Below are positions 20,346-55,181 of a stretch of DNA of 64,000 nucleotides, piece by piece (position 1 is the first letter of the stretch; each line of letters begins with the position of its first letter). The DNA lies in the NCBI GenBank assembly GCA_963766325.1, contig CAVXZF010000007.1:935794-999793 (forward strand), in the 5' to 3' direction. The translations under genes and the position numbers were made by a program. The notes under the pieces were generated by a model. It did not search any database. It worked only from the letters and a program-made list of their open reading frames with translations, and was not told the DNA's origin. The stretch is from an uncultured Actinomycetota bacterium. GTDB taxonomy: Bacteria; Actinomycetota; Actinomycetes; Mycobacteriales; CADCTP01.

Positions 20346-20347
20346 CG

Positions 20348-21834: not shown

Positions 21835-21876
21835 GTCGGCGGTGCCTCTCTCGGTGCTGCGGGCGGGTGGTCGGTC

Positions 21877-21953: not shown

Positions 21954-21982
21954 CCGGCGGCGGCGCGCCGGCCGCCGCACAG

Positions 21983-37404: not shown

Positions 37405-37544
37405 GGCGCCGCCCTACCCGACAGCGCTGGATCGTCCATCCGGCTCACCGTAGGGGTCCCCGCCGGCCGGCGTCCTCGGTGCCCGGCACCAATCTTCTAA
37501 CGGTTGTAGTTGTCGTCGGCATCCAAGTCGTGGTCACCTGGGCC

Positions 37545-38804
37545 ATGGCCGGGGTGCTCGCGCGGGTCGCGGATGCGGACGAAGTCCGCTCCGAGCGACT
37601 GCGCATCCTGGCCACGCTGCTGGCCGACGTCGAGCAGATCGCCGAGCGGGCGGTCGCCCGGATGCCCCGGGAGATCCCGGCCTACGCGGCCCAGGACCCG
37701 GAGTTCTTCGCCGACGTGCGCTACCAGGTGGTCCGGCACTACCGGGTCAAGCTCGACTCGCTGCTGACCGAGCGGCCGATCGGCCCGGGCGGCATGCCGT
37801 TCGTGCGGCCGGCGGCGATGCGGCGGGCCGCGGCCGGGCTGTCCCTGGAGGACTACCTGTGCGCGTTCCGGATCGGGCAGCAGGTCTTCTGGGAGGGGCT
37901 GCTGGAGCGGGCCGGCGACTCCCCGCTCGGTCATGAGGCAGCGCTGTCGCTGGCCACCCCGGTGATGCGGTACGCGGACTACGCGGCCACCCATGCCAGC
38001 CGGGTGTACGTCGAGCTCCAGCAGCAGCAGGTCGCCGACGCCGACCGGGTCCGCCGCGACCTGCTGGAGCACCTGCTCGCCGGCGAGGTGCCGACCCGGC
38101 GTGCGCTGCTGGCCACCGCGCAGGCGTACGGGCTGGTCGCCGACCGGCCCCTGCTGCTCGCCACGGTCGCGCCGGCCGCGATGGACGCGGACGTGCCGGC
38201 GCAGGCCACCGACGAGCTGGCCCGCCTCGACGGGCCGTGCGGGCGGGCGCTGGTGGTGAGCCGGCAGACCGAGCTGGTGCTGGTCACCGCGCTGCGGACG
38301 GCCTCCGATGCCGGCGCGGTGTGTGACCGGCTGGCCGAGGTGCAGGCCAGGTTGCGGGCGGAGGGCCTGCCGCTGGCGGTCGGCGTGGGCACGGTGGCGG
38401 CGGGGGTGGGCGAGCTGCCCCGGGCGTACCAGGAGGCGACGGCGGCGCTGGCCGACGTGGCGGTGCCCGGCGGGGTGGTGGCGCTGCCCCGGCTGTCCGC
38501 GTTCGACTACCTGACCCGGCGGGCCGACGACACCTCCCGCCGGCTGGTCGACCCGCGGCTGCGGGCCTTCCTGGCCGAGGACCGCGCCCGCGGCGGCACG
38601 CTGGTGGAGACCACGCGGGCGTTCGCCGCCGCCGACCTCAACCTCAAGGTGGCCGCGGGGCGGCTGCGGGTGCACACCAACACCGCGCAGTACCGACTGC
38701 GGAAGGTCGAGGAGCGCACCGGCCGTAACCCGCGCCGCATCGCCGACCTGCTCGACCTGCTGGTCGCGATCGCTTTGGTAGACCTACCGGATGCCGATGA
38801 CTGA
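37545..38804 (+). CDS. PucR-family transcriptional regulator
   Basis: C-terminal HTH LNLKVAAGRLRVHTNTAQYRLRKVEERTGRNPR (PucR C-terminal HTH). The start is uncertain: the track start GTG at 37479 lies in an AT-richer, promoter-like stretch, so ATG 37545 is chosen. Confidence 0.78.
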   Translation: MAGVLARVADADEVRSERLRILATLLADVEQIAERAVARMPREIPAYAAQDPEFFADVRYQVVRHYRVKLDSLLTERPIGPGGMPFVRPAAMRRAAAGLSLEDYLCAFRIGQQVFWEGLLERAGDSPLGHEAALSLATPVMRYADYAATHASRVYVELQQQQVADADRVRRDLLEHLLAGEVPTRRALLATAQAYGLVADRPLLLATVAPAAMDADVPAQATDELARLDGPCGRALVVSRQTELVLVTALRTASDAGAVCDRLAEVQARLRAEGLPLAVGVGTVAAGVGELPRAYQEATAALADVAVPGGVVALPRLSAFDYLTRRADDTSRRLVDPRLRAFLAEDRARGGTLVETTRAFAAADLNLKVAAGRLRVHTNTAQYRLRKVEERTGRNPRRIADLLDLLVAIALVDLPDADD

Positions 38805-39891
38805 GCCGGTCCGGGCCGCGGTGCTGCACGAGGTGGGCGCGCCGCCGCGGGTGCAGGAGGTGTCGCTGGACGAGCCCGGTCCAGGGCAGGTGCGGGTCCG
38901 GATCGCCGCCGCCGGGGTGTGCCACTCCGACCTGTCGCTGGCCCGCGGCACCCTGAAGATCCCGGCCCTGCCCGCGGTGCTCGGGCACGAGGGCGCCGGG
39001 CACGTGGTCTCCACCGGGCCGGACGTCACCGGCCTGGCTCCCGGCGACCCGGTGGTGCTCAACTGGTCGCCGTCCTGCGGGGCCTGCTGGTTCTGCCGGC
39101 ACGGCGAGCCCTACCTGTGCGAGCACGGCGACGACGCCACCCGCCGGCCGTACGGGCAGCTGGCCGACGGCACCCCGGTCTTCCCGAGCCTGAGCACCGG
39201 GGCCTTCGCCACCGAGACCGTGGTCTCCGCCCGGGCCTGCATCCCGCTGCCGGCCGACCTGCCGATGGCCCAGGCGGCGCTGCTCGGCTGCGCGGTGCTC
39301 ACCGGGGTCGGCGCGGTGCTCAACGCGGCCCGGGTCCGGCCCGGCGAGTCTGTCGTCGTCTTCGGGCTCGGCGGGGTCGGGCTGAGCGCGCTGCAGGGCG
39401 CCCGGCTGGCCGGCGCCGACCCGATCGTCGCGGTCGACCCGGCCGAGTCGCGCTGGGAGCTGGCCCGGACGCTGGGCGCCACCGAGGTGCTGCCGCCCGG
39501 CCGCGAGCTGGCCCGCACGGTGCGCGGGCTGACCGGCGGCCGCGGCGCCGACGTCGCGGTGGAGTGCGTCGGGCGGGCCGAGACAATGCGGGCGGCCTGG
39601 TCGGCGACCCGCCGCGGCGGCCGCGCGATCGTGGTCGGGATGGGCTCGCCGGACGACGAGCTGCGGCTGAACGCGCTGGAGATCCCGTTCTTCGCCCGCA
39701 CGCTCGCCGGCTGCATGTACGGCAGCAGCGACCCGGCCACGGACGTGCCGGTGCTGCTCGAGCACGTCCGGGCCGGCCGGCTCGACCTGGCCCCGCTGGT
39801 CACCGAGACGGTGCCGCTGGACGGGGTGGCGGACGCCTTCGCCGACCTGGAGGCCCGCCGCGGCGCCCGCACCGTGGTGCTGCCCGGCTGA
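38791..39891 (+). CDS. zinc-dependent alcohol dehydrogenase family oxidoreductase
   Basis: 366 aa. GVCHSDL, GHEGAGHVV, structural-zinc Cys cluster CGACWFCRHGEPYLC, and a Rossmann VVVFGLGGVGLSA. Confidence 0.9.
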   Translation: MPMTEPVRAAVLHEVGAPPRVQEVSLDEPGPGQVRVRIAAAGVCHSDLSLARGTLKIPALPAVLGHEGAGHVVSTGPDVTGLAPGDPVVLNWSPSCGACWFCRHGEPYLCEHGDDATRRPYGQLADGTPVFPSLSTGAFATETVVSARACIPLPADLPMAQAALLGCAVLTGVGAVLNAARVRPGESVVVFGLGGVGLSALQGARLAGADPIVAVDPAESRWELARTLGATEVLPPGRELARTVRGLTGGRGADVAVECVGRAETMRAAWSATRRGGRAIVVGMGSPDDELRLNALEIPFFARTLAGCMYGSSDPATDVPVLLEHVRAGRLDLAPLVTETVPLDGVADAFADLEARRGARTVVLPG

Positions 39892-39894
39892 CCC

Positions 39895-41257
39895 CTAGTC
39901 CGCCCGGTGGCGCGACGCGCCGATGACCTGCCAGACCGCGTCGGCCAGCGCCGGATGGCAGATGTCACTGTGCGCGCCGGAGGGGCCGGAGCCTTCCCGG
40001 ACGACCCCCGCCGCGTCGAGGTTCAGGACGACGCCCGGCCGGAGCTCGAGTGGCTTGCCTTCCACCGGGAGGACGTCGTCGGCCACCGCCACGCCGGGCC
40101 CGCGGACCCCCCAGACGCCGATGCCGCCGAACGTCGGCAGCTGGCCGGGACCGAAGTCGACCTGGTTCCGCAGGCCGGCCCCGATCGGATAGAACGCCCG
40201 GACCGCGCGGTCGTGCAACGACGTCGTCACGAGGACGGACCCGGTCACGAGGCCGTCGGCGACCAGCCGGTGGAAGTAGCCCGAGCGTCCCGGCCGGGAC
40301 GGGATCGACGCGCAGAAGGACCACAGCGACATCGCTCCCTGCACGAGCACCAGCGACGCGACCGGCACCGGTGCGATCCGGGCCGCCGGCCGCCCGGCCA
40401 CGGCGGCGGAGACGACGATGCAGCCGAAGCTGTGCCCCATCAGGTGGAGGCGCGCGCCGGGCGCCTCCCGCCGGAGGCTGCGGAGCAGCTCCGCGACCCC
40501 CGCTCTCCCCGACGATCCGGGCCCGGCGCTTCATCTGCCAGAAGGTGAACATCCGCAGCGGCGCCAGCAGGCCTCCGAGCGAGCCGCCGCCGTACGACAC
40601 GATCTCCTCGAGCTGGAACGCGCGGTAGACCTCATCCGCGTCGAAGGGAACCCGGTCGTCCCCCGGCGCCTCGCCCTCGCCGCCGGCGCCCAGCCCGAGC
40701 TCGGCGTCGATCGTCCGGTACGCCCGGCGCACCGGCTCCGGCAGGCGCCGCGGTGCGGCGTCGTCGAGCGCCGCGAGCACCACCGTCCGGACCGCCTCCC
40801 GGATCGCCGGGGAGTCGCCGAGCCGCTCGGCGTACCGGGCGACGAGCGCTTCGACCTCGTCCTGCGGGGCCGGCGGCGCGGGCGGCGGCGCCGCCGATGT
40901 CTCGGCCGTGAAGGAGGACGGCCCCAGCTCCTCGTCCCCCCACGCCTTGCTCGGCCAGTGCACCCCGACCAGCAGGGTCCGGAACTCCCCCGGCCGCTCG
41001 TCCGGTCGCTCCCGGGCCTCGCGGGCGGCGAGCATGGCCTCGATCCAGCGGCCGTACTGCTCCCGCGCGGCCGGCACATCGCCCTGCCAGCCGTGACTGA
41101 AGACGATGACGTCGGTGGGGCGGGCGGAGCCGGCCTCCGCGAGGGCACTCGCGGAGGAGGCCTCGCCACCGTCGTCGCGCTCCGTGCCGGACGCGTCGTA
41201 GCTGACGAGGTGGTAGTGGGCGTCGCGGTCGGCCACGGTCTCCAGGGCCACGGTCAC
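39895..41257 (-). pseudogene. alpha/beta-hydrolase (GHSFG serine nucleophile), last gene of the CHAT-SIR2 operon; reading frame broken at the C5 run 40497-40501
   Basis: Frame A runs from the GTG at 41257: VTVALETVADRDAHYHLVSY...VIVFSHGWQGDV...MFTFWQMKRRARIVGESG. Frame B continues VAELLRSLRREAPGARLHLMGHSFGCIVV...SLHDRAV...GAHSDICH (Ser-Asp-His order). Deleting one C in the run restores a single ~453-aa ORF. This could equally be a homopolymer sequencing error. Confidence 0.65.
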
Positions 41258-42672
41258 TCCCCACCGGTGCGGTACGCCCGGACGGCCGGGTCGCCGAGCA
41301 GGACATAGTTGCGGGCGTCGTGGTTGGCGGTCCACAACGCGGCGAGGGTGCGGTCGTCGATGATCCGGCCGAACTTGCGGTACTCCTGCATCCGGCTGGT
41401 CAGCTGGGTGGCGACGGCGGCGTACTTCGAGTTGACGTACTCCAGCGCGTGGCCGATGCGGAGGCCGTCGACCGTCGCTCGCATCGCGCTCGCGATCGCC
41501 GAGATCTGCGGGTCGATGCCGTTCCAGAGGAAGGAGCAGCTGAAGGCGCGGTCGACGTGCCCGACGAAGGCGAGCGCCGCACCGGCCCCGGTGCCCAGCA
41601 GTCGCTGCGGCAGCCGGGCGAGGAAGCCCCGCTCGGCCAGAACGGGATGGTCGTCGAAGTCGGACTCCCGGGGGGTGCCGGCGCCGTAGCAGGAGAAGGA
41701 GAAGACCACCCGCGGTCCGACCGCCCGGTCCGCCGGGATGTCCCGCCCGGCCAGGTAGTGCGTCTCGTCGACCCGTCCACCGCCGAGCAGGGGACCCTGC
41801 CACTCCTGGCAGAGGAGCGCTCCCTGCGCCTCCCGCTGGTCGGGACCGGCGGATCCCACCCCGTGCGTCGCCGTGAAGAGGACGGCCGGCCCGCCCGGCC
41901 CCGTCATCAGCTGCAGCAGCCTCTCCCGGGTCGCGGTGGCACCGACGTCCTGGGTCACCTGGAGGCCGGCGCCGAGGTCGACCAGCTCCTCGGCCAGCGG
42001 CTCGACCAGCCGGGACGCGCTGAGCGCGGTCGCCGTGTCCCCCGGATTGCGGGTGCCGAAAAGGTGGACGCGGCGGGCGGGAGCGTTCACACCCGGCGCC
42101 GCGGGTGCCTCGGGCGCCGCCGGCGCCTCGGCGGCGACGACCGCCGCGGCGTAGGCGGCGTACTCGGCCGGGGTGTCGAAGTGCAGCCGCCCCACCGCGT
42201 GCTCGACGTCGAGCTGGTACTGGAACGGGAAGGGGATCGCGTCGGGATCGCCGACGAGGAGCAGGTAGTACGGCATCCTGCGGGGATCGACCGGCCCGGG
42301 CGCGGTGCCGTGCCGGATCAGGAACGCGTCATCGTCCTCGTCCGGCAACCGGACCAGCTCCCGGTAGCGGTCGCCGGCCTGGGCACGGCGCAGGGTCCGC
42401 AGCGGCTCCAGCGCCGCCAGGATCTCGGGGTCGACGTCGTCGGCGGTGACCAGCGCCCATCCCGCCGAGGCGAGGTCGTCCGGGTCCGCTCCGTACATCA
42501 CCCCCAGGTTGGCCTCGTCGTCGGCGCGGCGGCGCCGAAGCGCATCGGCGTGCCGGCCGGCCGGCGGATGACCGCGCACCGACGCCGCGAGCGTCGCCAC
42601 CGACGAAGCGGGGAAGAGGTAGCCCCCGGTGTCCAGGTCGACCCCGTTGAAGAAGACCAGGTCGTCGGCCAT
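41254..42672 (-). CDS. clan-CD cysteine peptidase-like protein (gingipain C25/caspase-like His-Cys dyad)
   Basis: 472 aa. MPYYLLLVGDPDAIPFPFQ, VLFTATHG (His270) and VVFSFSCYGAG (Cys328) give the His-Gly...Cys order typical of clan CD. Its stop overlaps the next start (GTGA). Confidence 0.6.
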   Translation of the reverse strand: MADDLVFFNGVDLDTGGYLFPASSVATLAASVRGHPPAGRHADALRRRRADDEANLGVMYGADPDDLASAGWALVTADDVDPEILAALEPLRTLRRAQAGDRYRELVRLPDEDDDAFLIRHGTAPGPVDPRRMPYYLLLVGDPDAIPFPFQYQLDVEHAVGRLHFDTPAEYAAYAAAVVAAEAPAAPEAPAAPGVNAPARRVHLFGTRNPGDTATALSASRLVEPLAEELVDLGAGLQVTQDVGATATRERLLQLMTGPGGPAVLFTATHGVGSAGPDQREAQGALLCQEWQGPLLGGGRVDETHYLAGRDIPADRAVGPRVVFSFSCYGAGTPRESDFDDHPVLAERGFLARLPQRLLGTGAGAALAFVGHVDRAFSCSFLWNGIDPQISAIASAMRATVDGLRIGHALEYVNSKYAAVATQLTSRMQEYRKFGRIIDDRTLAALWTANHDARNYVLLGDPAVRAYRTGGE

Positions 42673-42675
42673 CCA

Positions 42676-44145
42676 TCAACCCAGCACGAGGACGAGGATC
42701 ACGACCAGCTCGATGACGGCGATCACCGAGACGATGGTCAGCGTGTAGCGGTAGGCCTGGAGCAGGAAGCGGTTGCCGACGTCCTCGTAGGACTCCCGGA
42801 GGAAGTCCCGCTCGAAGTCGGCGAGGTCCTTCCGCCGGACCGAGGGCGCCGTGGACAGCAGCTCCGACTTCAGCAGGAAGGCGCGTTGCCGGTTGTTGGC
42901 GACCCAGTCCAGAGCGGCGTTCTGCCACGGCTCGAGGTGGTCGTGGCGCCAGGCCCGGTTGCTGGCGCGGACCGCCGGGATCAGCCGGTCGTGCGCCAGC
43001 TCGTACCAGGTCGTCAGTCCCCGGGTGTCGCTGTTGACCAGGAACATCTCCCGCAGGCGGGTGAGGATCTCCCGCTCGTGGTCCCCGGTGACCGGCGGGA
43101 TGGTCGTCTGGCTGCGGAAGCCCTGGGCCGTGATCAGCTGGTGCTCGAACCAGTCGCGGATCAGCCGCTCGCTCGCGCCGAAGCTTCGGGCGAGCTCGCC
43201 GACGGAGTCCGAGTAGTAGCGGGTCAGGGCGCGCTCCACGTCCACGTGGCGCTCGACGTCCTCATCGTCGATGACGTGGAAGTCGCCCTTCGCCTTCCGG
43301 ACGTCCTTCCACAGCCGGCGGCACACCACCTGAAGCTGGAACGGCTCCACATAGGGCGCCAGCTTCGACTCCACCCCGTGCTCGGGCGCCTGCACCTTCG
43401 TCTGCGAGAGCTTTGTCACCAGCAGCTGGGCCGCCTCGTCGGTGACCGTGACCCCCTGCGCCGCCGCCGGCTTCCGGATCGCCGCGATCGCCTCCCGGTG
43501 GGTGAGGAAGTCCAGGCGGTAGCGCGAGCGGAGGTGACCGGGCACGAACCGCAGGCACCGGTCCATCCCACCGATGTAGTCCTCGCGCATCGCCAACAGG
43601 ACCCACAGCCCACGGTCGGCGATGGCTGCGCCCAGCTCCCGGAAGAACTGCTCCTTCGCGGCCCAGTCGGTCGGGTCGAGGGTGAGGATCTCCTCGACCT
43701 GGTCGAACACGACCAGCGGCAGCCGGCCCCGCTCGGCCGGCGGGAGCGCGCGGGCGAGGATCTCGCTGAGCGTGAGTTGACCGAGCTCGGGCGCGACCCC
43801 GTCCCCGTCGCCGAGCAGGTAGAGCGCCACGCTGAAGACGTAGCGGTTGTGCACCTTCCATGGGCGACCGTCGGCGTCGGTCGGCACCGGCTTGTCCACC
43901 CGCAGCGGTCCGACCGCGTGGAAGCCGTCGAGCAGCGGGAGGACCGCCGCCTGGATGATGGACGTCTTCCCGGCTCCGGAGGGAGCGTGCAGGAGCACGA
44001 CGCGCTCGGAGATGACGAGGTCGGCGAGCTCACGGGCCTCCCGCTCGCGGTTCGGCAGCCGCTGGTCGCGGCCGAAGGGGAACGGCCCGACGTACGGGTT
44101 CCGCGGCGGAGCCTTCCGGCCCGGTGCCGGCGCGCTGATCGTCAT
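42676..44145 (-). CDS. STAND-like P-loop NTPase with a C-terminal transmembrane anchor
   Basis: ATG at 44145 overlaps the upstream TGA (ATGA). NPYVGPFPFGRDQ...VVLLHAPSGAGKTS (Walker A), RLPLVVFDQVEE (Walker B, hhhhDQxEE). The last 23 aa, YTLTIVSVIAVIELVVILVLVLG, are hydrophobic. The track ORF to 44310 is an extension. Confidence 0.7.
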   Translation of the reverse strand: MTISAPAPGRKAPPRNPYVGPFPFGRDQRLPNREREARELADLVISERVVLLHAPSGAGKTSIIQAAVLPLLDGFHAVGPLRVDKPVPTDADGRPWKVHNRYVFSVALYLLGDGDGVAPELGQLTLSEILARALPPAERGRLPLVVFDQVEEILTLDPTDWAAKEQFFRELGAAIADRGLWVLLAMREDYIGGMDRCLRFVPGHLRSRYRLDFLTHREAIAAIRKPAAAQGVTVTDEAAQLLVTKLSQTKVQAPEHGVESKLAPYVEPFQLQVVCRRLWKDVRKAKGDFHVIDDEDVERHVDVERALTRYYSDSVGELARSFGASERLIRDWFEHQLITAQGFRSQTTIPPVTGDHEREILTRLREMFLVNSDTRGLTTWYELAHDRLIPAVRASNRAWRHDHLEPWQNAALDWVANNRQRAFLLKSELLSTAPSVRRKDLADFERDFLRESYEDVGNRFLLQAYRYTLTIVSVIAVIELVVILVLVLG

Positions 44146-46241
44146 GGCAGCCCGGTCCGGGTGCGGAGCTGATCCAGGAAGGAGCGGGTGTCGGACCAGA
44201 AGATGTTGACCCGGTCGGGGCCGAAGTAGGCCTCGAGGTAGCGCTGGGCCGCCTCCCGCTCGATCACCTGGCTCTGCAGCTTGAACTGGACGCCGACGTG
44301 GTCGTCCCAACGGTCCTTGAGGTTGAAACTCTTGATGCTCTGGAACACGACCCGGAAGTCCCAGTCCTCCAGGCGGTAGCCGAGGAAGAGCAGGGACGTC
44401 CCGGTGAGCGCCGCCTTCACGGCCGGCGGGACTATCTGCCGGATGTCCTTCTTCACGATCCAGGCGTCCAGCCAGTCGAAGTAGTCGTCCTCGGTCAGGA
44501 CCAGCGAGCGCGGTTCCGTGAGGCGCCCGAAGAGGTGGTACACCCAGGGCTCAGCCACGGACGGCGGATCGACGCTCGCCGGGTCCTCCCCGAGGAGGTC
44601 CCAGCCGATCCCGTCCGTCCACGGAAAGCAGATCGTTCGCGGCCTCTTCTCGGGCTGGACGTCCGCCATGGCGTCCTGCAGGAGGCCCGTAGTGCCGGTG
44701 GTCACGAAGATCTTGGCGGGCATGGACGCCACGACGCGGAACGGGTCGCCCTTGTCCGCGGCTCTGAGCCGCCGGCCGACCTCGAGGATCGCCTGCTCCG
44801 GCGTCCCGCGCTCGAGGATCTCGGGCGGAAGACCCCGGAACGGGTCGTCCCCCCGGGCATTGGTGACCCGCTCCTGCAACTCCGTGCGCAGGTATTTCTG
44901 GAGCTCTCCCGGCACCATCGCGCGGTTGTGGCTCACCCGAAGGTACTGGGCGACCTGGGCGAAGTTGTTCACCGCATGCGCGGCGATCGGCATTTGCCAT
45001 CGGCGCGCCCACCGGCGGGCCATCGATTCCCGCGAGCCCAGAATGCCGTCGGCCAGGCCCGGCCCGAGGACCGGAGTGAAGCTCCCGTTCTCGATCATCG
45101 TGTTGAGGATCTGCCAGGTCGCCTCGGCCCGGTCGGTGAATCCCGGCTCGTACCGCAACCGACCGGAGCGCAGCCGGGAGAACAGCACCGGCACCCACCA
45201 GTCGTCCCGGTCCCGGACGGCCTGGCGACCCACCGCCACCGCGGCGTCGACGACGGGATCCTCGGCCAGCGCCGCGAAGAAGGCCCGCGCGAAGTCGGAG
45301 GCGGTCCGCATGCTGACGTTGCCCTGCATCGCCACGACCGCCGCGACGCCGGACGCGGCCAGCCGCGGTCCGATCGCCGCGAGCGCGCCCCCGTCCTCGC
45401 TGTAGCGCTGATCGCCCACCCCGGCCGACTGGCAGGAGCTCAGCAGGACCACTGTGGGCCGGCGGGCGAGGTCACGCACCCGCTCCTCCATCCGCCGGGC
45501 GTCCACCGGGTCGGCGGTGCCGTCGGCCTTCTCGAGGAAGAGCAGCGGCACGTCGGACGTCTGCACGCCGTGCCCCACGACATAGAGGATGTCGAATCCC
45601 TCGTCCAGCTTCGCCAGCATGGCGGCGAGGGTTGCCTGCCCGCGGCCGGCGAGGACGACGGGACGGAAGGGCGCGAGCGCCTGCTGTGCCCGGTGGAGCT
45701 CGAGCGGGACGTCCACCGGCGCCAGCCGCGGACGTCCGGGCGTCTCGTACCCGTCCAGGTCGCTCGGGTCGGCGATCACCACGAGCGCCCGCAGCTCGCT
45801 GTCCGGCAGCTCGGACACCGGCCGCCAGTCGCCGCTGAGCAGATACCGGGAGAAGAGCACGTTCTGGCTGGTCGCGAGCGGCGAGCCGGTCCGAGGGTCC
45901 CGCATCGTCTCCCAGCGCACGGAGTGGAACCGCGCCGGTCCATCGACGTGCAGCCGGAAATGGAGCGGCACGTCGCGGGCCGCGGTGCCCACCCGGGTCA
46001 GGAACCGGCGCACTTCCTCGTCGGCGAAAAGCCACTCGGTGAGGCGCTCCCCGTACTCGGCCTCGTCGTTCGCCAGCTGGCCGAGCGCCGCCAGATCTAC
46101 TTGCACCGGCCGCTTGGGATGGGAACTGAAGTCCTCGAGGGCGTGGCCCAGCTGCCCCGTGAAACGGAGACTGACATCGAACGAATGCTGCACCGTGTCC
46201 CACACGAGGCCGAACTCGAAGTCGGCATAAGCGGCAGCCAC
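44142..46241 (-). CDS. CHAT-domain (caspase-like) protease fused to a C-terminal SIR2-like (SIR2_2-type) domain
   Basis: 699 aa. GTG start with a GGGGGA RBS. CHAT motifs: FDILYVVGHG (His224), PTVVLLSSCQSAG (Cys270), AAVVAMQGNVS. SIR2_2-like motifs: FTPVLGPGLADGILG, IFVTTGTTGLLQDAM, VYHLFGRL...LVLTEDDYFDW, SLLFLGYRLEDWDFRVV. Confidence 0.7.
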   Translation of the reverse strand: MAAAYADFEFGLVWDTVQHSFDVSLRFTGQLGHALEDFSSHPKRPVQVDLAALGQLANDEAEYGERLTEWLFADEEVRRFLTRVGTAARDVPLHFRLHVDGPARFHSVRWETMRDPRTGSPLATSQNVLFSRYLLSGDWRPVSELPDSELRALVVIADPSDLDGYETPGRPRLAPVDVPLELHRAQQALAPFRPVVLAGRGQATLAAMLAKLDEGFDILYVVGHGVQTSDVPLLFLEKADGTADPVDARRMEERVRDLARRPTVVLLSSCQSAGVGDQRYSEDGGALAAIGPRLAASGVAAVVAMQGNVSMRTASDFARAFFAALAEDPVVDAAVAVGRQAVRDRDDWWVPVLFSRLRSGRLRYEPGFTDRAEATWQILNTMIENGSFTPVLGPGLADGILGSRESMARRWARRWQMPIAAHAVNNFAQVAQYLRVSHNRAMVPGELQKYLRTELQERVTNARGDDPFRGLPPEILERGTPEQAILEVGRRLRAADKGDPFRVVASMPAKIFVTTGTTGLLQDAMADVQPEKRPRTICFPWTDGIGWDLLGEDPASVDPPSVAEPWVYHLFGRLTEPRSLVLTEDDYFDWLDAWIVKKDIRQIVPPAVKAALTGTSLLFLGYRLEDWDFRVVFQSIKSFNLKDRWDDHVGVQFKLQSQVIEREAAQRYLEAYFGPDRVNIFWSDTRSFLDQLRTRTGLP

Positions 46242-46371
46242 CGTGTCCCCCGGTCTGTGACGCCCGTCACTTTTCAGGGACGAGTGTCGAGCGGCCGGCC
46301 GGCATCGTCAAGCGCATTCAATTTCAGCGCCCCGCGAGAAACATGATTTGTGGCCAATTGTCATAGGCTCA

Positions 46372-47520
46372 CTAAAAGGCGCTGATCCCGGTGAGGGCGC
46401 GGCCGATGATCAGCTTCTGCACCTGGGTGGTGCCCTCGTAGAGGGTCATCACCCGGGCGTCGCGGAGATACTTGCCGACCGGGTACTCGTCGACGTAGCC
46501 GTACCCGCCGAAGACCTGCAGGCAGTTGTTGGCGGCGCGGACCGCGGCCTCGCTGGCGAAGAGCTTGGCCTTGCTCGCGGCGAGCGACACCTTCTCGCCC
46601 CGGTCGAGCAGGTCGGCGGCCAGCCAGGTCAGCATCCGGCCCGCGTCCACGTCCACCGCGGTGTCGGCCAGCAGCTCCTGCACCAGCTGGTGGGCCGCGA
46701 TCGGCTTGCCGAACTGGACCCGCTCCTTGGCGTACGCCGTCGCCGCGTCCAGGCAGCCCCGGGCGATGCCGACGCAGCCGGCGGCGATGCTCATCCGGCC
46801 CTTGTCCAGCGCGGCCATGGCCAGCCGGAAGCCCTGGCCCTCCTCGCCGAGCCGGTTGGCGTCCGGCACCCGCACCTCGTCCAGGTGCAGCGAGGCGGTG
46901 GCCTGGCCGCGCAGGCCGAGCTTGCCCTTGATCTCGCGGGCCTCGAAGCCGGCGCCGTCGGTGGGCACCAGGAAGGCGGTGATCCCCTTCGGCCCAGGCC
47001 CGCCGGTGCGGGCGAAGACCAGCGCCACCTGGGCCCAGGTGCCGTTGGTGATGAACACCTTCTCCCCGGTGAGGAGCCAGTCACCGCCGTCCTTCACCGC
47101 ACGGGCGGTGAGGTTGCCGGCGTCGCTGCCGGTACCCGGCTCGGTCAGCCCGAAGCAGGCCAGCGTGCTGCCGTCGACGATGCCGGGCAGCCACTGCTTG
47201 CGCTGCTCGTCGGAGCCGTACGCGGCGATGGTCTTGCCGACCAGGCCGAGGCTGACGCTGACGATCCCGCGGATCGCGGAGTCGCCGCGGCCCAGCTCCT
47301 CCATGACCAGGCAGTACGACCGGTGGTCGACCGGGGTGCCGCCGAACTCCTCGTCCAGCGTCAGGCCGAGGAAGCCCAGCTCGCCGAGGCGGGCCACGAT
47401 CTCGCGGTCCACCAGCTCGTCCCGGTCCCAGCGGGCCCGGTGCGGGACCACCTCGCGGTCGATGAAGTCGGCGGCGGTGGACCGGAGCAGCTCCTGCTCC
47501 TCGGTGAGGGCGAGCGTCAT
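46372..47520 (-). CDS. acyl-CoA dehydrogenase
   Basis: 382 aa, MTLALTEEQELLRSTAADF...GLTEPGTGSDAG...VFGGYGYVDEYPVGKYLRDARVMTLYEGTTQVQ. Confidence 0.93.
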   Translation of the reverse strand: MTLALTEEQELLRSTAADFIDREVVPHRARWDRDELVDREIVARLGELGFLGLTLDEEFGGTPVDHRSYCLVMEELGRGDSAIRGIVSVSLGLVGKTIAAYGSDEQRKQWLPGIVDGSTLACFGLTEPGTGSDAGNLTARAVKDGGDWLLTGEKVFITNGTWAQVALVFARTGGPGPKGITAFLVPTDGAGFEAREIKGKLGLRGQATASLHLDEVRVPDANRLGEEGQGFRLAMAALDKGRMSIAAGCVGIARGCLDAATAYAKERVQFGKPIAAHQLVQELLADTAVDVDAGRMLTWLAADLLDRGEKVSLAASKAKLFASEAAVRAANNCLQVFGGYGYVDEYPVGKYLRDARVMTLYEGTTQVQKLIIGRALTGISAF

Positions 47521-47660: not shown

Positions 47661-49217
47661 ATGTCCGGGGGCATCCGGGGCGGCGCCGGCGGGCGGGGGA
47701 TGGAGGCGCGGGTTAGGTTGGCGCGCGTGCTGCGGGCGCTGGTGGGGATGCAGCGGCGGGCGGTGGTGACGCCGCGGGCGGACCAGCCGTGGCGGGTGCC
47801 GGCGCCGGCCTCGGCGATCGTCGTGGGCGGCGGGATCGCCGGCGTCTCGGCCGCCGTGGTGCTGGCCGAGCGGGGCGTGCGGGTCACCCTGCTGGAGGCG
47901 GCCGACCACCTCGGCGGGCGGCTCGGCGCGTGGCCGCGCACGCTGGCGGACGGCTCGCGGCAGCTGGTCGAGCACGGCTTCCACGGCTTCTTCCGGCAGT
48001 ACTACACCTGGCGCGCGGTGCTGCGCCGGATCGACCCGGAGCTCGGCTTCCTGCGCCCGCTCGGCGGCTACCCTGTGATCTCCCGCCGGTGGCCGGCCGA
48101 GGACTTCGCCTCGCTGCCCGGGCTGCCGCCGGTCAACCTGCTCGCCCTGCTGGTGCGCTCACCCAGCCTGCGCCTGCGGGACCTGCGGCACGCCGACCGG
48201 GTGCTCGCCTCGGCGCTGCTCGAGTTCGACCGGGTACGGACGTACGCCGACTTCGACGGCATGACGGCCGCCGAGCTGCTGGACCGGCTGGCGCTGCCGG
48301 AGCGGGCCCGGGCGGTGCTCTTCGAGGTCTTCAGCCACTCCTTCTTCAACCGGGAGGAGGACTTCTCGGCGGCCGAGATGATCATGCTGTTCCACTACTA
48401 CTTCCTCGGCAACCCCGAGGGACTCGGCCTGGACGCCCCGGTCGACGACCACGACACCTGCATCTGGTCGCCGCTGCGGGCGCGGCTGGAGCGGCACGGG
48501 GCGGACGTACGGACCGGAGCGCCGGTCGACCGGGTCGAGCGGGACGGCGACGGGTGGTGGGCCGGCGGCGTCTGCGCGCCGCACCTGGTGCTCGCGCTCG
48601 ACCCGGCGGCGCTGCGCAAGCTGGTCGCGGGGTCGGCCGGGCTGCCGGCCGGGCTGGTCCCGCAGGTGGAGTCGCTGACGGTCAGCGCGCCGTACGCGGT
48701 CGCCCGCTACTGGACCGACCGCCCGGTGGGTGCCGACCGGCCGACCTTCTCCGGGGTGTCCCGGGAGGCCACCATGGACTCCATCACCGTCTACTCGCGA
48801 CTGGAGGACGGTGCCCGGCGATGGGCGGCGCGGTCCGGGGGCGAGGTGGTCGAGCTGCACGCGTACGCGGCCCCGGACGGCATCGGCGCGAACGAGGCGG
48901 CCGACCGGATGTGGGCCGAGCTGGGCGGGCTGTGGCCGGAGGTGCGCGACCTGCGGGTGCTGGATCGGGAGACCCGGGTGGGGCACGACGCGCCCGGCTT
49001 CCCGCCCGGCTCGGACGCGACCCGCCCCGGGGTGCGTACCGGCGACCCGACGCTGCTGCTGGCCGGCGACTGGGTCCGGCTCCCGTTCCCGTCCGCGCTC
49101 ATGGAGCGGGCCGCCGTCACCGGCGTCCTGGCCGCCAACGACGTCCTCGCCGCCGCCGGCGCCCGCGCCGAGCCCGTCACCACCACCCGCCCCACCGGCC
49201 TCCTCCACCGCGGGTAA
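47661..49217 (+). CDS. FAD-dependent oxidoreductase (amine oxidase/phytoene desaturase-like fold)
   Basis: SAIVVGGGIAGVSAAVVLAERGVRVTLLEAADHLGGR (dinucleotide-binding GxGxxG...E...GGR). The true start is probably an internal Met (47700 or 47748). Confidence 0.8.
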   Translation: MSGGIRGGAGGRGMEARVRLARVLRALVGMQRRAVVTPRADQPWRVPAPASAIVVGGGIAGVSAAVVLAERGVRVTLLEAADHLGGRLGAWPRTLADGSRQLVEHGFHGFFRQYYTWRAVLRRIDPELGFLRPLGGYPVISRRWPAEDFASLPGLPPVNLLALLVRSPSLRLRDLRHADRVLASALLEFDRVRTYADFDGMTAAELLDRLALPERARAVLFEVFSHSFFNREEDFSAAEMIMLFHYYFLGNPEGLGLDAPVDDHDTCIWSPLRARLERHGADVRTGAPVDRVERDGDGWWAGGVCAPHLVLALDPAALRKLVAGSAGLPAGLVPQVESLTVSAPYAVARYWTDRPVGADRPTFSGVSREATMDSITVYSRLEDGARRWAARSGGEVVELHAYAAPDGIGANEAADRMWAELGGLWPEVRDLRVLDRETRVGHDAPGFPPGSDATRPGVRTGDPTLLLAGDWVRLPFPSALMERAAVTGVLAANDVLAAAGARAEPVTTTRPTGLLHRG

Positions 49218-49226
49218 CAGCGGCGG

Positions 49227-49619
49227 TCACCAGTCGGCGAGCTCCAGGTCGGTGCACGGGAAGTCGTCGCCGACGCAGAGCAGCGGCTCGGCGGCGATCC
49301 GGGCGACCGCGTACGTCAGGCAGTCGCCGAAGTCGAGCGCCGCGCGGTGCCGACCCTTCCCGTACCGGGTGAAGGCGTCGACGGCCACCGTCCAGTGCCC
49401 GGGCCCGACCGCGATGACGTCGGCCGAGGTCTCCTGGACGAAGCGGGCGAGCAGGCTCTTGCCGGGGACGCCGAGCCGGGAGACCAGCACCATGCCGGTC
49501 TCGGCCAGCGTCGGACCGCCGACGGCGAGCCGCTCGGCGCCGGCCAGCGCGTTGACCAGGCGCTTGTGGTCCGGCTCCTGCAGCAGCACCGCGATGATCG
49601 CCGAGCTGTCAACGATCAC
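49227..49619 (-). CDS. vapC: type II toxin VapC (PIN-domain ribonuclease)
   Basis: 130 aa from the GTG at 49619: VIVDSSAIIAVLLQEPD...DFGDCLTYAVA...LCVGDDF (PIN acidic residues). 4-nt GTGA overlap with vapB. Confidence 0.85.
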   Translation of the reverse strand: MIVDSSAIIAVLLQEPDHKRLVNALAGAERLAVGGPTLAETGMVLVSRLGVPGKSLLARFVQETSADVIAVGPGHWTVAVDAFTRYGKGRHRAALDFGDCLTYAVARIAAEPLLCVGDDFPCTDLELADW

Positions 49620-49885
49620 AGCCCGTCCGGCCCGTAGCCGAGGACGTCCTCGCGCTCGGTCTTGGTGACCGCTCGGCGCCGCGCGGCCGCCGGCACCTGC
49701 GGCCACACCTCGTCGGTGAGGAAGGCGGTCAGCCGCTCGGCCCGCTGCCCCGCCGACCGGCGCAGCAGCCGCTCCCGACGCTCGGTCAGCGCCACTCGGA
49801 CCGCCCGCGTCTTGGTCTCGTGGGCGAGGGCGGCGACCTCGGCGGCGAGCCGCTCGGTCTCCGGGTCCTTGATGTTCAGCGCCAT
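49616..49885 (-). CDS. vapB: type II antitoxin VapB
   Basis: 89 aa, MALNIKDPETERLAAEVAALAHETKTRAVRVALTERRERL. Sits immediately upstream of, and overlaps, the PIN toxin gene. Confidence 0.8.
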   Translation of the reverse strand: MALNIKDPETERLAAEVAALAHETKTRAVRVALTERRERLLRRSAGQRAERLTAFLTDEVWPQVPAAARRRAVTKTEREDVLGYGPDGL

Positions 49886-49987
49886 GGTGTAACTCTACCC
49901 GCGAAGGTGGAAATATGCCGTGGAATGTTGCGGGTGCAAGTGCCGTTCGGTGGATGGTCTGATGGTGCGGGAGACGAGGAGACGGCG

Positions 49988-50986
49988 ATGCCTGCGGTGA
50001 CGGTGGATGACATCCTGACGCTGCCCCGGCTGCGCACGCCGGACCCGGCCGGGGACCGGCCGCGGCCGGTGGCGGCGGTGACCACCGCCCCGCGCGGCTT
50101 CGAGGGCGAGGGCTTCCCGGTGCGGCGCGCGTTCGCAGGGGTCGACCTTCGGACGCTCGACCCGTTCATCCACATGGACCAGATGGGCGAGGTCGAGTAC
50201 GCGCCCGGCGAGCCCAAGGGCACCCCCTGGCACCCGCACCGCGGCTTCGAGACCGTCACCTACATCATCGACGGCACCTTCCTGCACCAGGACTCGCACG
50301 GCGGCGGCGGGGTCATCACCAACGGCGACACCCAGTGGATGACCGCCGGCTCCGGCCTGCTGCACATCGAGACCCCGCCGGAGGAGCTGGTCGTCTCCGG
50401 CGGCCTCTTCCACGGCGTCCAGCTCTGGGTCAACCTGCCGGCCAAGGACAAGTGGGCGCCCCCGCGCTACCAGGACATCCGCGGCGGCAAGGTCGCGCTG
50501 CTGTCCTCGGCCGACGGCGGCGCGCTGCTGCGGCTCATCGCCGGCGAGCTGGACGGGCACGCCGGCCCGGGCGTGACGTACACGCCGATCACGCTGGCGC
50601 ACGCCACCGTCTCCCCCGGCGCCTCGGTCACGCTGCCGTGGCGGACCGACTTCAACGCGCTGGTGTACGTGCTGTCCGGCGAGGGCACCATCGGCGCCGA
50701 GCGACGCCCGGTCCGCTCCGGCCAGCTCGCCGTCCTCGGCGCCGGCAGCTCGATCACCGTGGCCGGCGACGGCCGCCAGGACAGCCGCACGCCGGCGCTC
50801 GATGTGCTGCTCCTCGGCGGCCGGCCGATCCGGGAGCCGGTGGCGATGTACGGCCCGTTCGTCATGAACACCCGCGACGAGGTGGTCCGCGCCTTCGAAG
50901 ACTTCCAGGCCGGCCGCCTCGGCACCGTCCCCGCCGACGCCCTGCGGCCCCACTCCGGCCTGCAGGCCGAGACCTCCGGCGACTGA
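49988..50986 (+). CDS. pirin-family protein (bicupin)
   Basis: Start at Met 49988 (MPAVTVDD...). RGFEGEGFPVRRAF...PHRGFETVTYIIDGTFLHQDSHG...QWMTAGSGLLHIE...GVQLWVNLP. Confidence 0.9.
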   Translation: MPAVTVDDILTLPRLRTPDPAGDRPRPVAAVTTAPRGFEGEGFPVRRAFAGVDLRTLDPFIHMDQMGEVEYAPGEPKGTPWHPHRGFETVTYIIDGTFLHQDSHGGGGVITNGDTQWMTAGSGLLHIETPPEELVVSGGLFHGVQLWVNLPAKDKWAPPRYQDIRGGKVALLSSADGGALLRLIAGELDGHAGPGVTYTPITLAHATVSPGASVTLPWRTDFNALVYVLSGEGTIGAERRPVRSGQLAVLGAGSSITVAGDGRQDSRTPALDVLLLGGRPIREPVAMYGPFVMNTRDEVVRAFEDFQAGRLGTVPADALRPHSGLQAETSGD

Positions 50987-52122: not shown

Positions 52123-52560
52123 GTGGACACGAGTTCTGTCGAGACCGACCTTCCTGACGCGGGGCGGAGAGTGGACGCCGAGGTGACGCTGCCGGACGGA
52201 CCCGAGGGGGCGAGCTTCGCCCGTCGGGCGACCGCACGGGCGGCGGAGCTGTGGCGGCTGGACCGGGAGCTGACCGAGACCGCGCTGCTGCTGGTCAGCG
52301 AGCTGGCCACCAACGCGATCCGGCACGGCGCCCCGCCGGTGCGGCTGTCCCTGCGGCTGGAGTCCGACCGGCTGCGGGTCGAGATCACCGACGGCTCGCC
52401 CTCGCTGCCCCGGCTCATCCAGCCCGGCCCGGACCAGGTCGGCGGGCGCGGGCTGCAGATCGTGCAGGAGCTGGCGGCCCGCTGGGGCGCCCAGGCGTCC
52501 CGGCAGCACCTCGGCAAGACCGTCTGGTTCGAGCTCGGCGGCATGCTCCGCCGGCGCTGA
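52123..52560 (+). CDS. HATPase_c-type anti-sigma-factor-like serine kinase (RsbW/SpoIIAB-like)
   Basis: 145 aa. LLVSELATNAIRHG (N-box) and GGRGLQIVQELAARWG (G-box). Confidence 0.75.
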   Translation: MDTSSVETDLPDAGRRVDAEVTLPDGPEGASFARRATARAAELWRLDRELTETALLLVSELATNAIRHGAPPVRLSLRLESDRLRVEITDGSPSLPRLIQPGPDQVGGRGLQIVQELAARWGAQASRQHLGKTVWFELGGMLRRR

Positions 52561-52715
52561 GCCGCCCACCCCGGCCCGACACCAGCCCACCCGCCGCCCT
52601 GCCGCCGGCCCGCCACCGGTCGCCTGCCGGCCCGCCCACCGGCCCCTCCGGGCTGCGTACCCGGGAATCACCCATCGGCACCGGTCATGGCACAGTGACG
52701 ACGACACGGCAGAGG

Positions 52716-55181
52716 ATGGGCATGACGACGGAGCGGTTCCGGCTCGTCGCGGCGGCGGCCGCGGCGCTGGTGCTCGCGGTGGTCGGGATGGCCGCCGGCG
52801 GTCTCGCCCGGGACGACGCCGCCACCGCCGTGGACGTCGCGCAAGTGGTCGCGGCCGCGGCGGCCGCCGCCTGCTGCGGCCGGACCGGCTGGCGGGCGAC
52901 CGGGCCGGAGCGGCGCTGGCGGCTGCTGGTCGGGCTCGGCATCGGGCTCTGGGGCGCCGTGCAGGCGGTCCGGCTCTGGGCCGGGCTGGCCGGTGCCGAC
53001 CTGGGGTCGCCTTCGGTCGCGGACGCCGGCCAGCTCGGGCTGGCCGTCTTCGTGCTGCCCGCGCTGGCCGTCTTCGCCACCGAGGGCACCCGGCTGCCGC
53101 CGCGGCCGACGACGCCCCCCGACGACGACGTCGAGACCGGCCGGTCGGTGCCGGTGCTGGTGCTGGACGGGCTGGTGGTGGTCGGCTCGCTGCTCACCCT
53201 GGCCTGGTCGAGCACCCTGGGCGCGGCCGTCGACCGCGGCGCCCCCGGGCCGGTCGACCTGCTGGTCGCGCTGGTCGACCCGGTGGTCGACCTGGCGCTG
53301 ATCACCGTGGTGGTGCTGCTCACCGCGGTCCGCCGGGTGCGCTGGCGGCCGCCGCTGCTGCTGCTCGGCCCCGGCCTGGTCGCGATCGCGATGTCCGACA
53401 GCGTCGCCGGCTGGCTGCACAACCGGGGCGACGCCGAGGTCCACCCCCTGGTCGAGGCGGGCGCGGTGGTCGGCGCCGCGCTGGTCGCGCTGGCCGCGGT
53501 GGTGCCGGAGGCGCCGCCCGGCTCTCCGGCCCGGCGGCGGACCGCGCTGCCGGCCTGGGCGCACCTGCTGGTGCCGTACCTGCCGCTGACCGCGGTCGGC
53601 CTGCTGATGACCGGGCAGACCGCGGTCGGCGTGCAGCTGGAGCCGGTCGAGATCTACGCCGGCATGCTGGTCATGGTGCTGGTGGTGGCCCGCCAGCTGC
53701 TCACCCTGCGGGAGAACCTCACGCTCTTGCAGCGGGTCCGCGACGGCCGCCGGCAGCTGGCCCACCTCGCCTTCCACGACCCGCTGACCGGGCTGGTCAA
53801 CCGGGCGCTGTTCGGCGACCGGCTGGCGCACGCGGTCGAGCTGCACCGGCGGGACGGCCAGCCGGTGGCGCTGCTCTTCTGCGACCTCGACGACTTCAAG
53901 ACCGTCAACGACAGCCTCGGCCACAGCGCCGGCGACGAGCTGCTGCGGCAGGTCGCGCAGCGGCTGGCCGCGACCGTACGGTCCTCGGACACCGTCGCGC
54001 GGCTGGGCGGGGACGAGTTCGCGGTGCTCTTCGAGGGCGGCCAGGCGGACCGGTCCACGGTGGTGGAGCGGCTGGTCCAGGCGCTGGCGAGGCCGTTCAC
54101 GCTGGACGGGGTGGCCCGGATCGTACGGTGCAGCCTCGGCCTGGTGGCCGCGGACGAGCCAGGACCGGAGGTGTCCCCGGACCTGCTGCTGCACCAGGCC
54201 GACGGGGCGATGTACGAGGCCAAGCGGCAGGGCGGCGGCCAGGTGGTGACGTACCGGCCCGGCGAGACGCCGACCCACACCGACCCGGACCTGCCCGAGC
54301 GGCTGGCCCGGGCGCTGCGCCGCGGGGTGTCCGCGGCTGAGGACGACGGGCTGCGTGTGCATTACCAGCCGATCGTGCGGATCGCGGACGGCGCCACAGT
54401 GGCGCTGGAGGCGCTGGCCCGATGGACCGACCGGGCCCGCGGGCCGGTGTCGCCGGACGTCTTCGTGGCGGTGGCCGAGCGGACCGGGCTGGTCGGCGAC
54501 CTGGACGACCGGGTGCTCGAGCAGGCCTGCCGGGACCTGGCCGCGCTGCGCAAGAAGCTCGGCCGCGGGCTGGCCGTCCATGTCAACGTGTCCGCCACGC
54601 GGCTGCACGACCCCGGCCTGGAGCGGACCGTGCGCGCCGCGCTGGAGCGGCACGGGCTGCCCGGCGGGGCGCTGGTGCTGGAGATCACCGAGACCAGCCG
54701 GGTGCCCGACCCGGACGCCGCCTCCCGGATCCTGCAGCGGCTGCGCAAGGCCGGCGTCCGGGTCGCGCTGGACGACTTCGGCACCGGCTACGGCACGCTT
54801 GCCCACCTGCACCTGCTGCCGGTCGACGTGGTCAAGCTGGACCGCACGCTCACCACCCCGGACCCGGAGCAGGCGGAGCGGCTGCGCCGCTCGGTGGTCA
54901 CCATCTCCCGCGCGCTCGGCATGCTGGTCGTCGCCGAGGGGGTGGAGACGATCCGGCAGGCCGCCGGGCTGCACCGGCTGGGCTGCGACCTCGCCCAGGG
55001 CTGGCTCTACGGCCGGCCGGTCGCGGTGGGCGACCTGCGCCTGGTGCCGGCCCGCGTCCCCGACCTGCCGGAGCCCGCCGGCGCCGGGCCCGACGCCGGC
55101 CCGGTCGCCGAGCCGTCCGCGAACGGCAGCGGACCCCACCCGGTCGTCGTCCCGGCCCGGCTCCTCGGGCCGGCCACCTGA
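52716..55181 (+). CDS. membrane-bound GGDEF-EAL protein (canonical GGDEF; diguanylate cyclase/phosphodiesterase)
   Basis: Multi-TM N-terminus. HDPLTGLVNR...RLGGDEFAVLF. EAL domain EALARW...DDFGTGYGTL...KLDRTL...EGVET. The start could be ATG 52716 or ATG 52722 (the latter has a GAGGA RBS). The track start at 52251 overlaps the upstream gene and was rejected. Confidence 0.9.
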   Translation: MGMTTERFRLVAAAAAALVLAVVGMAAGGLARDDAATAVDVAQVVAAAAAAACCGRTGWRATGPERRWRLLVGLGIGLWGAVQAVRLWAGLAGADLGSPSVADAGQLGLAVFVLPALAVFATEGTRLPPRPTTPPDDDVETGRSVPVLVLDGLVVVGSLLTLAWSSTLGAAVDRGAPGPVDLLVALVDPVVDLALITVVVLLTAVRRVRWRPPLLLLGPGLVAIAMSDSVAGWLHNRGDAEVHPLVEAGAVVGAALVALAAVVPEAPPGSPARRRTALPAWAHLLVPYLPLTAVGLLMTGQTAVGVQLEPVEIYAGMLVMVLVVARQLLTLRENLTLLQRVRDGRRQLAHLAFHDPLTGLVNRALFGDRLAHAVELHRRDGQPVALLFCDLDDFKTVNDSLGHSAGDELLRQVAQRLAATVRSSDTVARLGGDEFAVLFEGGQADRSTVVERLVQALARPFTLDGVARIVRCSLGLVAADEPGPEVSPDLLLHQADGAMYEAKRQGGGQVVTYRPGETPTHTDPDLPERLARALRRGVSAAEDDGLRVHYQPIVRIADGATVALEALARWTDRARGPVSPDVFVAVAERTGLVGDLDDRVLEQACRDLAALRKKLGRGLAVHVNVSATRLHDPGLERTVRAALERHGLPGGALVLEITETSRVPDPDAASRILQRLRKAGVRVALDDFGTGYGTLAHLHLLPVDVVKLDRTLTTPDPEQAERLRRSVVTISRALGMLVVAEGVETIRQAAGLHRLGCDLAQGWLYGRPVAVGDLRLVPARVPDLPEPAGAGPDAGPVAEPSANGSGPHPVVVPARLLGPAT

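Follow-up and report, generated by a model that had tools for sequence, protein, structure and literature searches.

In the SAVED-CHAT/PCaspase system of type III-B CRISPR and cyclic-oligonucleotide-based antiphage signalling (CBASS) loci, SAVED-CHAT cuts another caspase-like protease, PCaspase, and thereby activates it; PCaspase then cleaves many proteins and leads to abortive infection (Steens et al., 10.1101/2023.06.23.546230). In the LcCaspase-LcHydrolase module, a caspase-like protease makes an adjacent alpha/beta-hydrolase zymogen toxic by cleavage at two sites (Evans et al. 2025, PMC12642450), and the caspase/alpha-beta-hydrolase pairing is known from conflict systems in multicellular bacteria that depend on nucleoside triphosphates (Kaur et al. 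2020, PMC7159879). In Avs and other STAND antiviral nucleoside triphosphatases (NTPases), and in EACC1-caspase-STAND systems, a P-loop STAND switch is tied to a caspase-like effector (PMC13581612, PMC12642450, PMC7159879). Here we describe a four-gene operon from an uncultured Actinomycetota bacterium that resembles each of these in part. The stretch analysed, hereinafter the window, is 64,000 nucleotides (nt) of contig CAVXZF010000007.1 (assembly GCA_963766325.1), and the operon occupies positions 39895-46241 of its minus strand. It encodes a CHAT protease-SIR2-like fusion (gene 1), an nSTAND1 NTPase (gene 2), a C25-like protease (gene 3) and a probable alpha/beta-hydrolase (gene 4). By analogy with the systems above, we propose, with a probability of about 0.6, that the operon is a STAND-NTPase-gated proteolytic conflict system acting in abortive infection or programmed death. 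All parts fit a known paradigm, that of caspase-like protease-effector modules under STAND control. New here are a free-standing C25-fold second protease, a pseudo-SIR2 fusion and a tail-anchored NTPase without a sensor.

Like SAVED-CHAT/PCaspase loci, the operon holds two caspase-fold proteases, one of which is a CHAT protease fused to a regulatory domain, and activation of CHAT by oligomerisation is the likely logic. Unlike those loci, it contains no SAVED domain, cyclic-oligonucleotide synthase or CRISPR, and control would lie with the nSTAND1 ATPase instead. Its second protease is C25-like and is matched by no model of PADLOC, SAVED_CHAT among them.

With the LcCaspase-LcHydrolase-type modules, which occur in actinomycetes as well, the operon shares the adjacency of a clan-CD protease gene and a hydrolase gene (PMC7159879, PMC12642450), the link to STAND NTPases or beta-transducin (WD40) sensors, and an extra sequence that separates the N-terminal strands of the hydrolase from its C-terminal catalytic part, the latter of about 20 kDa. 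Compared by published description, the gene 4 product is longer than LcHydrolase (453 versus about 295 residues), and the window operon adds CHAT as a further protease and encodes its NTPase in a gene of its own. The protease-hydrolase logic itself is already established, the pairing having been described in 2020 (PMC7159879) and the biochemistry in 2025 (PMC12642450). The likeness to Avs is clearest in cyanobacterial relatives of the operon, which encode a classical tripartite effector-NTPase-repeat protein (CHAT-nSTAND1-WD40). In the window, by contrast, effector and NTPase (the latter with the sensor in relatives) lie on separate genes, the NTPase is tail-anchored and without sensor repeats, and an EACC1 gene is absent.

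The initial annotation did not recognise this arrangement as a named system. Consistent with this, no named system of this composition was found in the literature searched, and the architecture is not catalogued in PADLOC; a prior computational description may exist. Nor did NCBIfam give a family above cutoff for any of the four genes. The degree of novelty is nevertheless lower than was implied, because nSTAND1 had been named as a family (Kaur et al. 2021, PMC8195603) and the caspase/hydrolase pairing was already published.

Linkage of the four genes across phyla

The four genes are consecutive and have a coding-type GC content at third codon positions (GC3, 0.92-0.95). The stop codon of gene 1 and the start codon of gene 2 overlap in ATGA (44142-44145), the TGA of gene 2 (42676-42678) is separated by the spacer tgg from the ATG of gene 3 (42670-42672), and the stop codon of gene 3 and the start codon of gene 4 overlap in GTGA (41254-41257). 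All three coupling junctions noted previously (the middle one, TGA-tgg-ATG, spans 42670-42678) are therefore present.

When each species was represented by one genome, at least 597 species had a member of the gene 3 family; they belong to Actinomycetota, Cyanobacteria, Chloroflexota, Acidobacteriota, Planctomycetota, Proteobacteria and other phyla. The cassette is spread over hundreds of species and more than six phyla. The neighbourhoods of 80 gene 3 loci were analysed, 46 of which have at least 6 kb of flanking sequence on both sides of gene 3. A CHAT-SIR2-like gene and an nSTAND1 gene are both present in 38 of the 80 loci, and in nearly all of these 38 they are adjacent and in the same order. 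Among the 46 well-flanked loci, CHAT and nSTAND1 adjoin gene 3 in 38, as a split pair in 30 and in a fused form in 8. Gene 4 is present in 28 of the 80 loci, in nearly all of which it lies close to gene 3, mostly directly adjacent to it.

The exact four-gene order recurs in Kitasatospora, Kibdelosporangium, Streptomyces sp. NBC_01276, an Actinomycetota metagenome-assembled genome and a soil metagenome contig. The genomic contexts of these operons are unrelated; one contains nonribosomal peptide synthetase and radical-SAM genes, another Spd and Mrr-like genes. The recurrence of the exact order in differing contexts marks the operon as mobile and co-inherited.

Two natural gene fusions connect the components further. 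In Amycolatopsis sp. NPDC049691 (locus L004, 6693-9299), seen in one assembly, nSTAND1 is joined in frame to the C25-like protease and the transmembrane helix is lost; the gene order is that of the four-gene operon with genes 2 and 3 fused. In cyanobacteria, among them Nostoc, Calothrix and Microcoleus, CHAT (3e-20), nSTAND1 (1e-113) and WD40 parts are united in a single protein of about 1600 residues, whose gene lies beside hydrolase and C25-like genes. Specifically, the Nostoc and Calothrix loci (L034, 212-8013, and L028, 6508-14711) have the order hydrolase, C25-like protease, CHAT-nSTAND1-WD40, and the SIR2-like domain is absent. The synteny across phyla and the two fusions indicate that the four genes form one functional unit, as the initial annotation had argued from their packing. 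The co-occurrence of the quartet on which it made this proposal depend was found in several actinomycetes and on the soil metagenome contig, with cyanobacteria carrying the fused counterpart that lacks the SIR2-like domain. A chance neighbourhood of four unrelated genes was also considered and was rejected on the same two grounds. The conserved core over all forms is CHAT plus nSTAND1, with or without WD40, plus the C25-like protease, with or without the hydrolase. Since split, fused and sensor-less forms all occur in nature, they provide ready constructs for dissecting how STAND NTPases are coupled to caspase-like effectors.

Domain architecture and catalytic residues

Gene 1 (44142..46241, minus strand) encodes 699 residues and has a GTG start with an upstream GGGGGA ribosome-binding site. 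Its CHAT (clan CD) protease domain comprises residues 62-347 (45201..46058, minus strand) and matches Pfam CHAT (PF12770) at 5.3e-24, with 85.6 bits against a gathering cutoff of 24. A PDB sequence search gave no usable relative of this part. The catalytic residues His224 (VVGHG; 45570-45572) and Cys270 (SSCQSAG) are kept in all 36 full-length relatives with which the gene 1 family was compared.

The SIR2-like domain follows at about residues 385-699 (44145..45089, minus strand) and retains a glycine-rich loop, LGPGL. It matches Pfam SIR2_2 at 7.4e-16, with 59 bits against a gathering cutoff of 24.5. A profile built from the C-terminal halves of gene 1 family members matches Thoeris ThsA (6lhx, 2.4e-11; 7uxt, 1.6e-13), DSR2 and KomC, with E values of 1e-13 to 1e-3 overall, and the SIR2_2 fold (1e-11 to 1e-3 in the comparison of systems) is what gene 1 shares with these proteins. 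The fold named in the initial annotation is thus supported; the nicotinamide adenine dinucleotide (NAD)-consuming activity assigned to it is not. Phe571 aligns to the catalytic His (ThsA H152, DSR2 H171, KomC H146), and among the 36 relatives this column contains Phe in 30, Leu in 3, Tyr in 2 and Met in 1, but never His. Gly516 aligns to the catalytic N112 of ThsA, a column that is Asn in 16 of the 36 relatives and Gly in the actinomycete clade of the window. Inactivating mutants in the PDB affect the same positions (DSR2 H171A and KomC H146N by name; 8bto shows Ala at the ThsA Asn by alignment). Because Phe571 and Gly516 occupy the catalytic positions, the SIR2-like domain is predicted to be inactive and is probably not an NADase. 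In 31 of the 36 relatives, a His stands two residues before the canonical position, which leaves a non-canonical mechanism conceivable. Gene 1 also differs from ThsA, DSR2 and KomC in having neither a SLOG domain nor a TIR partner.

Gene 2 (42676..44145, minus strand) encodes 489 residues and matches Pfam nSTAND1 (PF20703) at 1.5e-25, with 91 bits against a cutoff of 27.1. The CHAT, SIR2_2-fold and STAND assignments made earlier therefore all lie above Pfam gathering scores. Walker A, GAGKTS with Lys60 (43960..43977, minus strand; identified by motif and family alignment), and Walker B, VVFDQVEE at residue 145, are intact, and neither GAGKTS nor FDQxEE varies over 40 gene 2 relatives. No usable relative was found by PDB sequence search. 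At the extreme C-terminus, hydropathy predicts a transmembrane helix at about residues 467-489 (42679..42747, minus strand), with a Kyte-Doolittle 19-residue maximum of 3.14 at residues 471-489, in agreement with the helix of the initial annotation.

Most relatives have an equivalent helix behind the NTPase, with WD40 repeats after it. The nSTAND1 open reading frame (ORF) of most relatives from outside the actinomycetes, as well as that of Cellulomonas and Geodermatophilus, is 1100-1770 codons long and encodes the NTPase, one predicted transmembrane helix, a coiled coil and WD40 propellers. Such single ORFs were seen at loci L003, L006, L019, L032, L039 and L041 and at about 25 others. In 29 sequences of this kind, Lys and Arg residues are more numerous on the NTPase side of the helix than on the WD40 side (130 versus 77). 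This bias suggests a WD40 part outside the cytoplasm, in which case these relatives would be transmembrane STAND receptors. STAND receptors that sense outside the cytoplasm are thus a testable possibility. In the window, gene 2 ends just past the helix, and no WD40 repeat was found anywhere in the 64 kb. The window lineage has lost the WD40 sensor that is typical of most relatives. The same sensor-less, helix-terminated gene 2 is present at five or more other loci from actinomycetes or metagenomes. Because the form is shared there at identities of 46-71% and every ORF is intact, it is a maintained variant and not decay.

Gene 3 (41254..42672, minus strand) encodes a cytoplasmic cysteine protease of 472 residues with the fold of gingipains. 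Its AlphaFold2 model has a mean predicted local distance difference test (pLDDT) score of 87 and a predicted template-modelling score of 0.91. Foldseek matches the model to gingipains K and R (Kgp, RgpB) over about 450 aligned columns, with E values of 1e-9 to 1e-6 and a probability of 1.0; the next match after the gingipains is Craspase TPR-CHAT. His270 (ATHG) and Cys328 (FSCYGAG) are invariant in the family alignment. Pfam C25 gives the window protein 18 bits against a cutoff of 23 and a Nostoc homologue 39.1 bits, and several homologues have a precomputed match to PF01364. Sequence search of the PDB gave no usable relative. From the structural match (best Foldseek E value 1e-9) and the invariant dyad, gene 3 is assigned as a second clan-CD protease of the C25 type, in agreement with the initial annotation.

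Like gingipains, the protein has a catalytic fold of two subdomains and a dyad of His and Cys. It differs from them in being cytoplasmic and in having no signal peptide, immunoglobulin-like domain or type IX secretion system (T9SS) C-terminal domain, and the similarity is low (10-15% identity, template-modelling score about 0.45). Specifically, no hydrophobic N-terminus was found (maximum Kyte-Doolittle value 1.08), and no T9SS domain is present, the protein terminating directly after the catalytic domain.

Gene 4 (39895..41257, minus strand) was recovered by three-frame translation and homologue alignment. It had been taken for a single ORF; however, the span from 41257 to 39895 is 1363 nt, which is indivisible by 3. 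A GC3 frame plot and three-frame translation place a +1 frameshift at a run of five G (40497..40501, minus strand). Removal of one G restores a protein of 453 residues, to which the intact homologues (430-474 residues) align from end to end. Among the homologues listed, 120 of 120 are single ORFs, and nearly all span 94-99% of the repaired protein. The frameshift is either a sequencing or assembly error or a recent inactivating mutation.

The repaired protein is probably a lipase-like alpha/beta-hydrolase, an assignment that is moderately supported. Ser276 (GHSFG), Asp349 and His429 are invariant across homologues and would form the catalytic triad of the serine hydrolase named previously. An insert of about 170 residues separates the N-terminal strands from the nucleophile strand; it contains the invariant motifs PGDDRxPFD and LAPLRxLTFWxMKRRA and shows no obvious pair of invariant R-G sites. 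The AlphaFold2 model is of medium confidence (pLDDT 73).

The quoted motifs and residues (GAGKTS K60, VVFDQVEE, VVGHG H224, SSCQSAG C270, ATHG H270, FSCYGAG C328 and GHSFG) were all correct as first read. Of the four destructive activities listed with them, probably two proteases and one hydrolase stand; a SIR2 NADase is not supported, and the hydrolase gene is frameshifted here.

Proposed mechanism and alternative explanations

In the mechanism that we propose, the product of gene 2, an active-looking nSTAND1 ATPase, would be held at the cytoplasmic face of the membrane by its C-terminal helix and would serve as both switch and assembly platform. A trigger would cause its oligomerisation and so gather the CHAT protease domains of gene 1, for which the dead SIR2-like domain could act as an oligomerisation or ligand-binding module. 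Activated CHAT would then process the stand-alone C25-like protease of gene 3, the presumptive executioner. Where gene 4 is present, the gene 3 protease would cut the hydrolase zymogen, excising the insert of about 170 residues and releasing a lipase/esterase-like toxic activity. This sequence, from ATP-dependent assembly through CHAT and the C25-like protease to the hydrolase, is proposed because of the SAVED-CHAT/PCaspase and caspase/hydrolase precedents. The specific order of the cascade is tentative, and we hold it with clearly less than even confidence.

If the model holds, signalling from protease to protease would be known from a third case in bacterial immunity, executioner proteases would gain a class with the gingipain fold, and a SIR2 NADase would have been turned into a non-catalytic module. 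In logic only, the arrangement recalls the eukaryotic apoptosome (Apaf-1/caspase-9/caspase-3), in which a STAND ATPase, with WD40 repeats as in the relatives of gene 2, governs an initiator and an executioner protease of caspase fold. The components differ: the ATPase belongs to nSTAND1 instead of NB-ARC, CHAT and C25-like proteases take the place of C14, and CARD adaptors are absent. An apoptosome-like two-tier cascade, with a membrane STAND ATPase, an initiator CHAT scaffolded by pseudo-SIR2, a gingipain-fold executioner and a lipase-like zymogen, is a speculative extension that we consider unlikely. In it, the ancestral form of the ATPase would be a transmembrane receptor resembling nucleotide-binding leucine-rich repeat proteins and bearing extracytoplasmic WD40 propellers. 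If this were true, prokaryotic immunity would have its first STAND receptor that spans the membrane and senses outside, and its first executioner protease of the C25 type.

Several observations weigh against a conflict system of this kind or against single steps of the cascade. PADLOC-DB v2 gives weak partial matches for gene 1 only (SAVED_CHAT, 1.4e-5; ThsA, 7.6e-5), none for genes 2-4, and no system call. The flanks of the window locus are metabolic and not those of a defence island, and no recognisable sensor domain was found in this lineage. The order from CHAT to the C25-like protease is an analogy only, and the two proteases could work in parallel. Gene 3 is without gene 4 in 28 of the 38 split-type loci; because gene 4 is absent from most of them, the hydrolase cannot be the sole substrate of the gene 3 protease. 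Since gene 4 is frameshifted in the window, the final hydrolase step may be non-functional here. The identification of the hydrolase is also marginal by profile and structure. For Pfam Abhydrolase_8, whose cutoff is 20.5 bits, the fragment scores 20.7 and the repaired protein 18.9 bits, Foldseek gives no significant match (the best interpretable hits are minimal lipases, with a probability of 0.75-0.84 and E values of at least 0.1), and a PDB sequence search with the gene 4 family was without match.

The losses seen in the window raise the question of whether this copy functions at all. No other sequence shares the gene 4 frameshift of the window, the WD40 part is absent from the window and the SIR2 catalytic residues are missing, as would be expected of a decaying remnant. 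However, the form without WD40, tail-anchored and with Gly at the Asn position, is present with intact ORFs and 46-71% identity in five or more further loci from actinomycetes or metagenomes, genes 1-3 keep a GC3 of 0.92-0.95 together with all catalytic residues of CHAT, gene 3 and the Walker motifs, and a single-base homopolymer change is a frequent assembly error in DNA of about 72-78% GC. A functionless remnant is therefore improbable. Equally improbable is a system in which the SIR2 domain of gene 1 depletes NAD+ beside the proteases, as in Thoeris ThsA, DSR or SIR2-STAND systems. The Pfam SIR2_2 score, the family profile matches to ThsA, DSR2 and KomC, the retained glycine-rich loop and the upstream His in 31 of 36 relatives are all compatible with such an effector; but a catalytic His is never present in the family (F30/L3/Y2/M1), Gly replaces the Asn equivalent to ThsA N112 in the window and its actinomycete clade, with Asn in only 16 of 36 relatives, and the PDB inactivating mutants (DSR2 H171A, KomC H146N, and Ala at Asn in 8bto) sit exactly at these positions.

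A further explanation keeps the regulated proteolysis at the membrane and gives it a role other than antiviral, namely development, kin discrimination or envelope-stress death in filamentous or multicellular bacteria, with the ancestral WD40 receptor sensing an extracytoplasmic cue. It would account for the order of NTPase, one transmembrane helix and WD40 in most relatives, for the charge bias (K+R 130 versus 77) that favours WD40 outside the cell, for the abundance of filamentous actinomycetes, cyanobacteria and Chloroflexota among the taxa and for the flanks of the window locus. The variable context, the location of the Streptomyces copy among Spd-type (SPDY) and Mrr-like genes and the patchy phyletic spread are, on the other hand, typical of an accessory conflict system, and the STAND plus caspase-like modules characterised so far are all antiphage (PMC12642450, PMC13581612). 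We regard this explanation as unlikely, if less so than NAD+ depletion or decay, and prefer a STAND-gated proteolytic conflict system.

Genomic context of the operon

The GC content around the locus is about 72-78%, without a local shift. Downstream of the operon lies a convergent Zn-alcohol dehydrogenase gene (38791-39891) and upstream an acyl-CoA dehydrogenase gene (46372-47520). No tRNA gene lies within 17 kb of the operon. The metabolic flanks, the lack of a nearby tRNA and the even composition are as first described, and integration beside a tRNA or within a compositional island was rejected on the last two of these grounds. The intergenic region 5' of gene 1 is 130 nt long (46242..46371, minus strand). 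The promoter of the operon is presumably located there, or else the operon is transcribed by read-through from the acyl-CoA dehydrogenase gene; a promoter and terminator scan of the locus found neither a sigma-70 consensus nor a terminator.

Elsewhere in the window, rpoC, with the motif NADFDGD, lies on the minus strand at 4235-8200, with a probable rpoB upstream of it (8225-11701). Genes for tRNA-Trp, tRNA-Met and tRNA-Thr are found within 17000-22055, and a GGDEF-EAL protein of 1007 residues is encoded at 52158-55181. These are ordinary chromosomal core genes, so the operon is chromosomal and does not lie on an obvious island.

The surroundings of three related cassettes are worth recording. 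In Streptomyces sp. NBC_01276 (L083; CP108442.1, 6580154-6601608), the four-gene operon has an intact hydrolase of 474 residues and lies among SPDY (Spd, plasmid-spread) genes and a gene with a weak Mrr_cat match, which suggests that its surroundings derive from a mobile element. In Geodermatophilus sp. SYSU D01105 (L084), a WD40-bearing cassette with a convergent layout is flanked by genes for a Pirin, a PucR-type regulator and a flavin adenine dinucleotide (FAD) oxidoreductase. These flanking genes resemble those of the window at 37479-38804 and 47661-50986, a likeness that may mean that the window derives from a related actinomycete and that the cassette was remodelled in place. In Calothrix anomala (L028, 3563-5701), a lipoxygenase gene (Pfam, 2e-56), unusual in bacteria, lies just 5' of the cassette.

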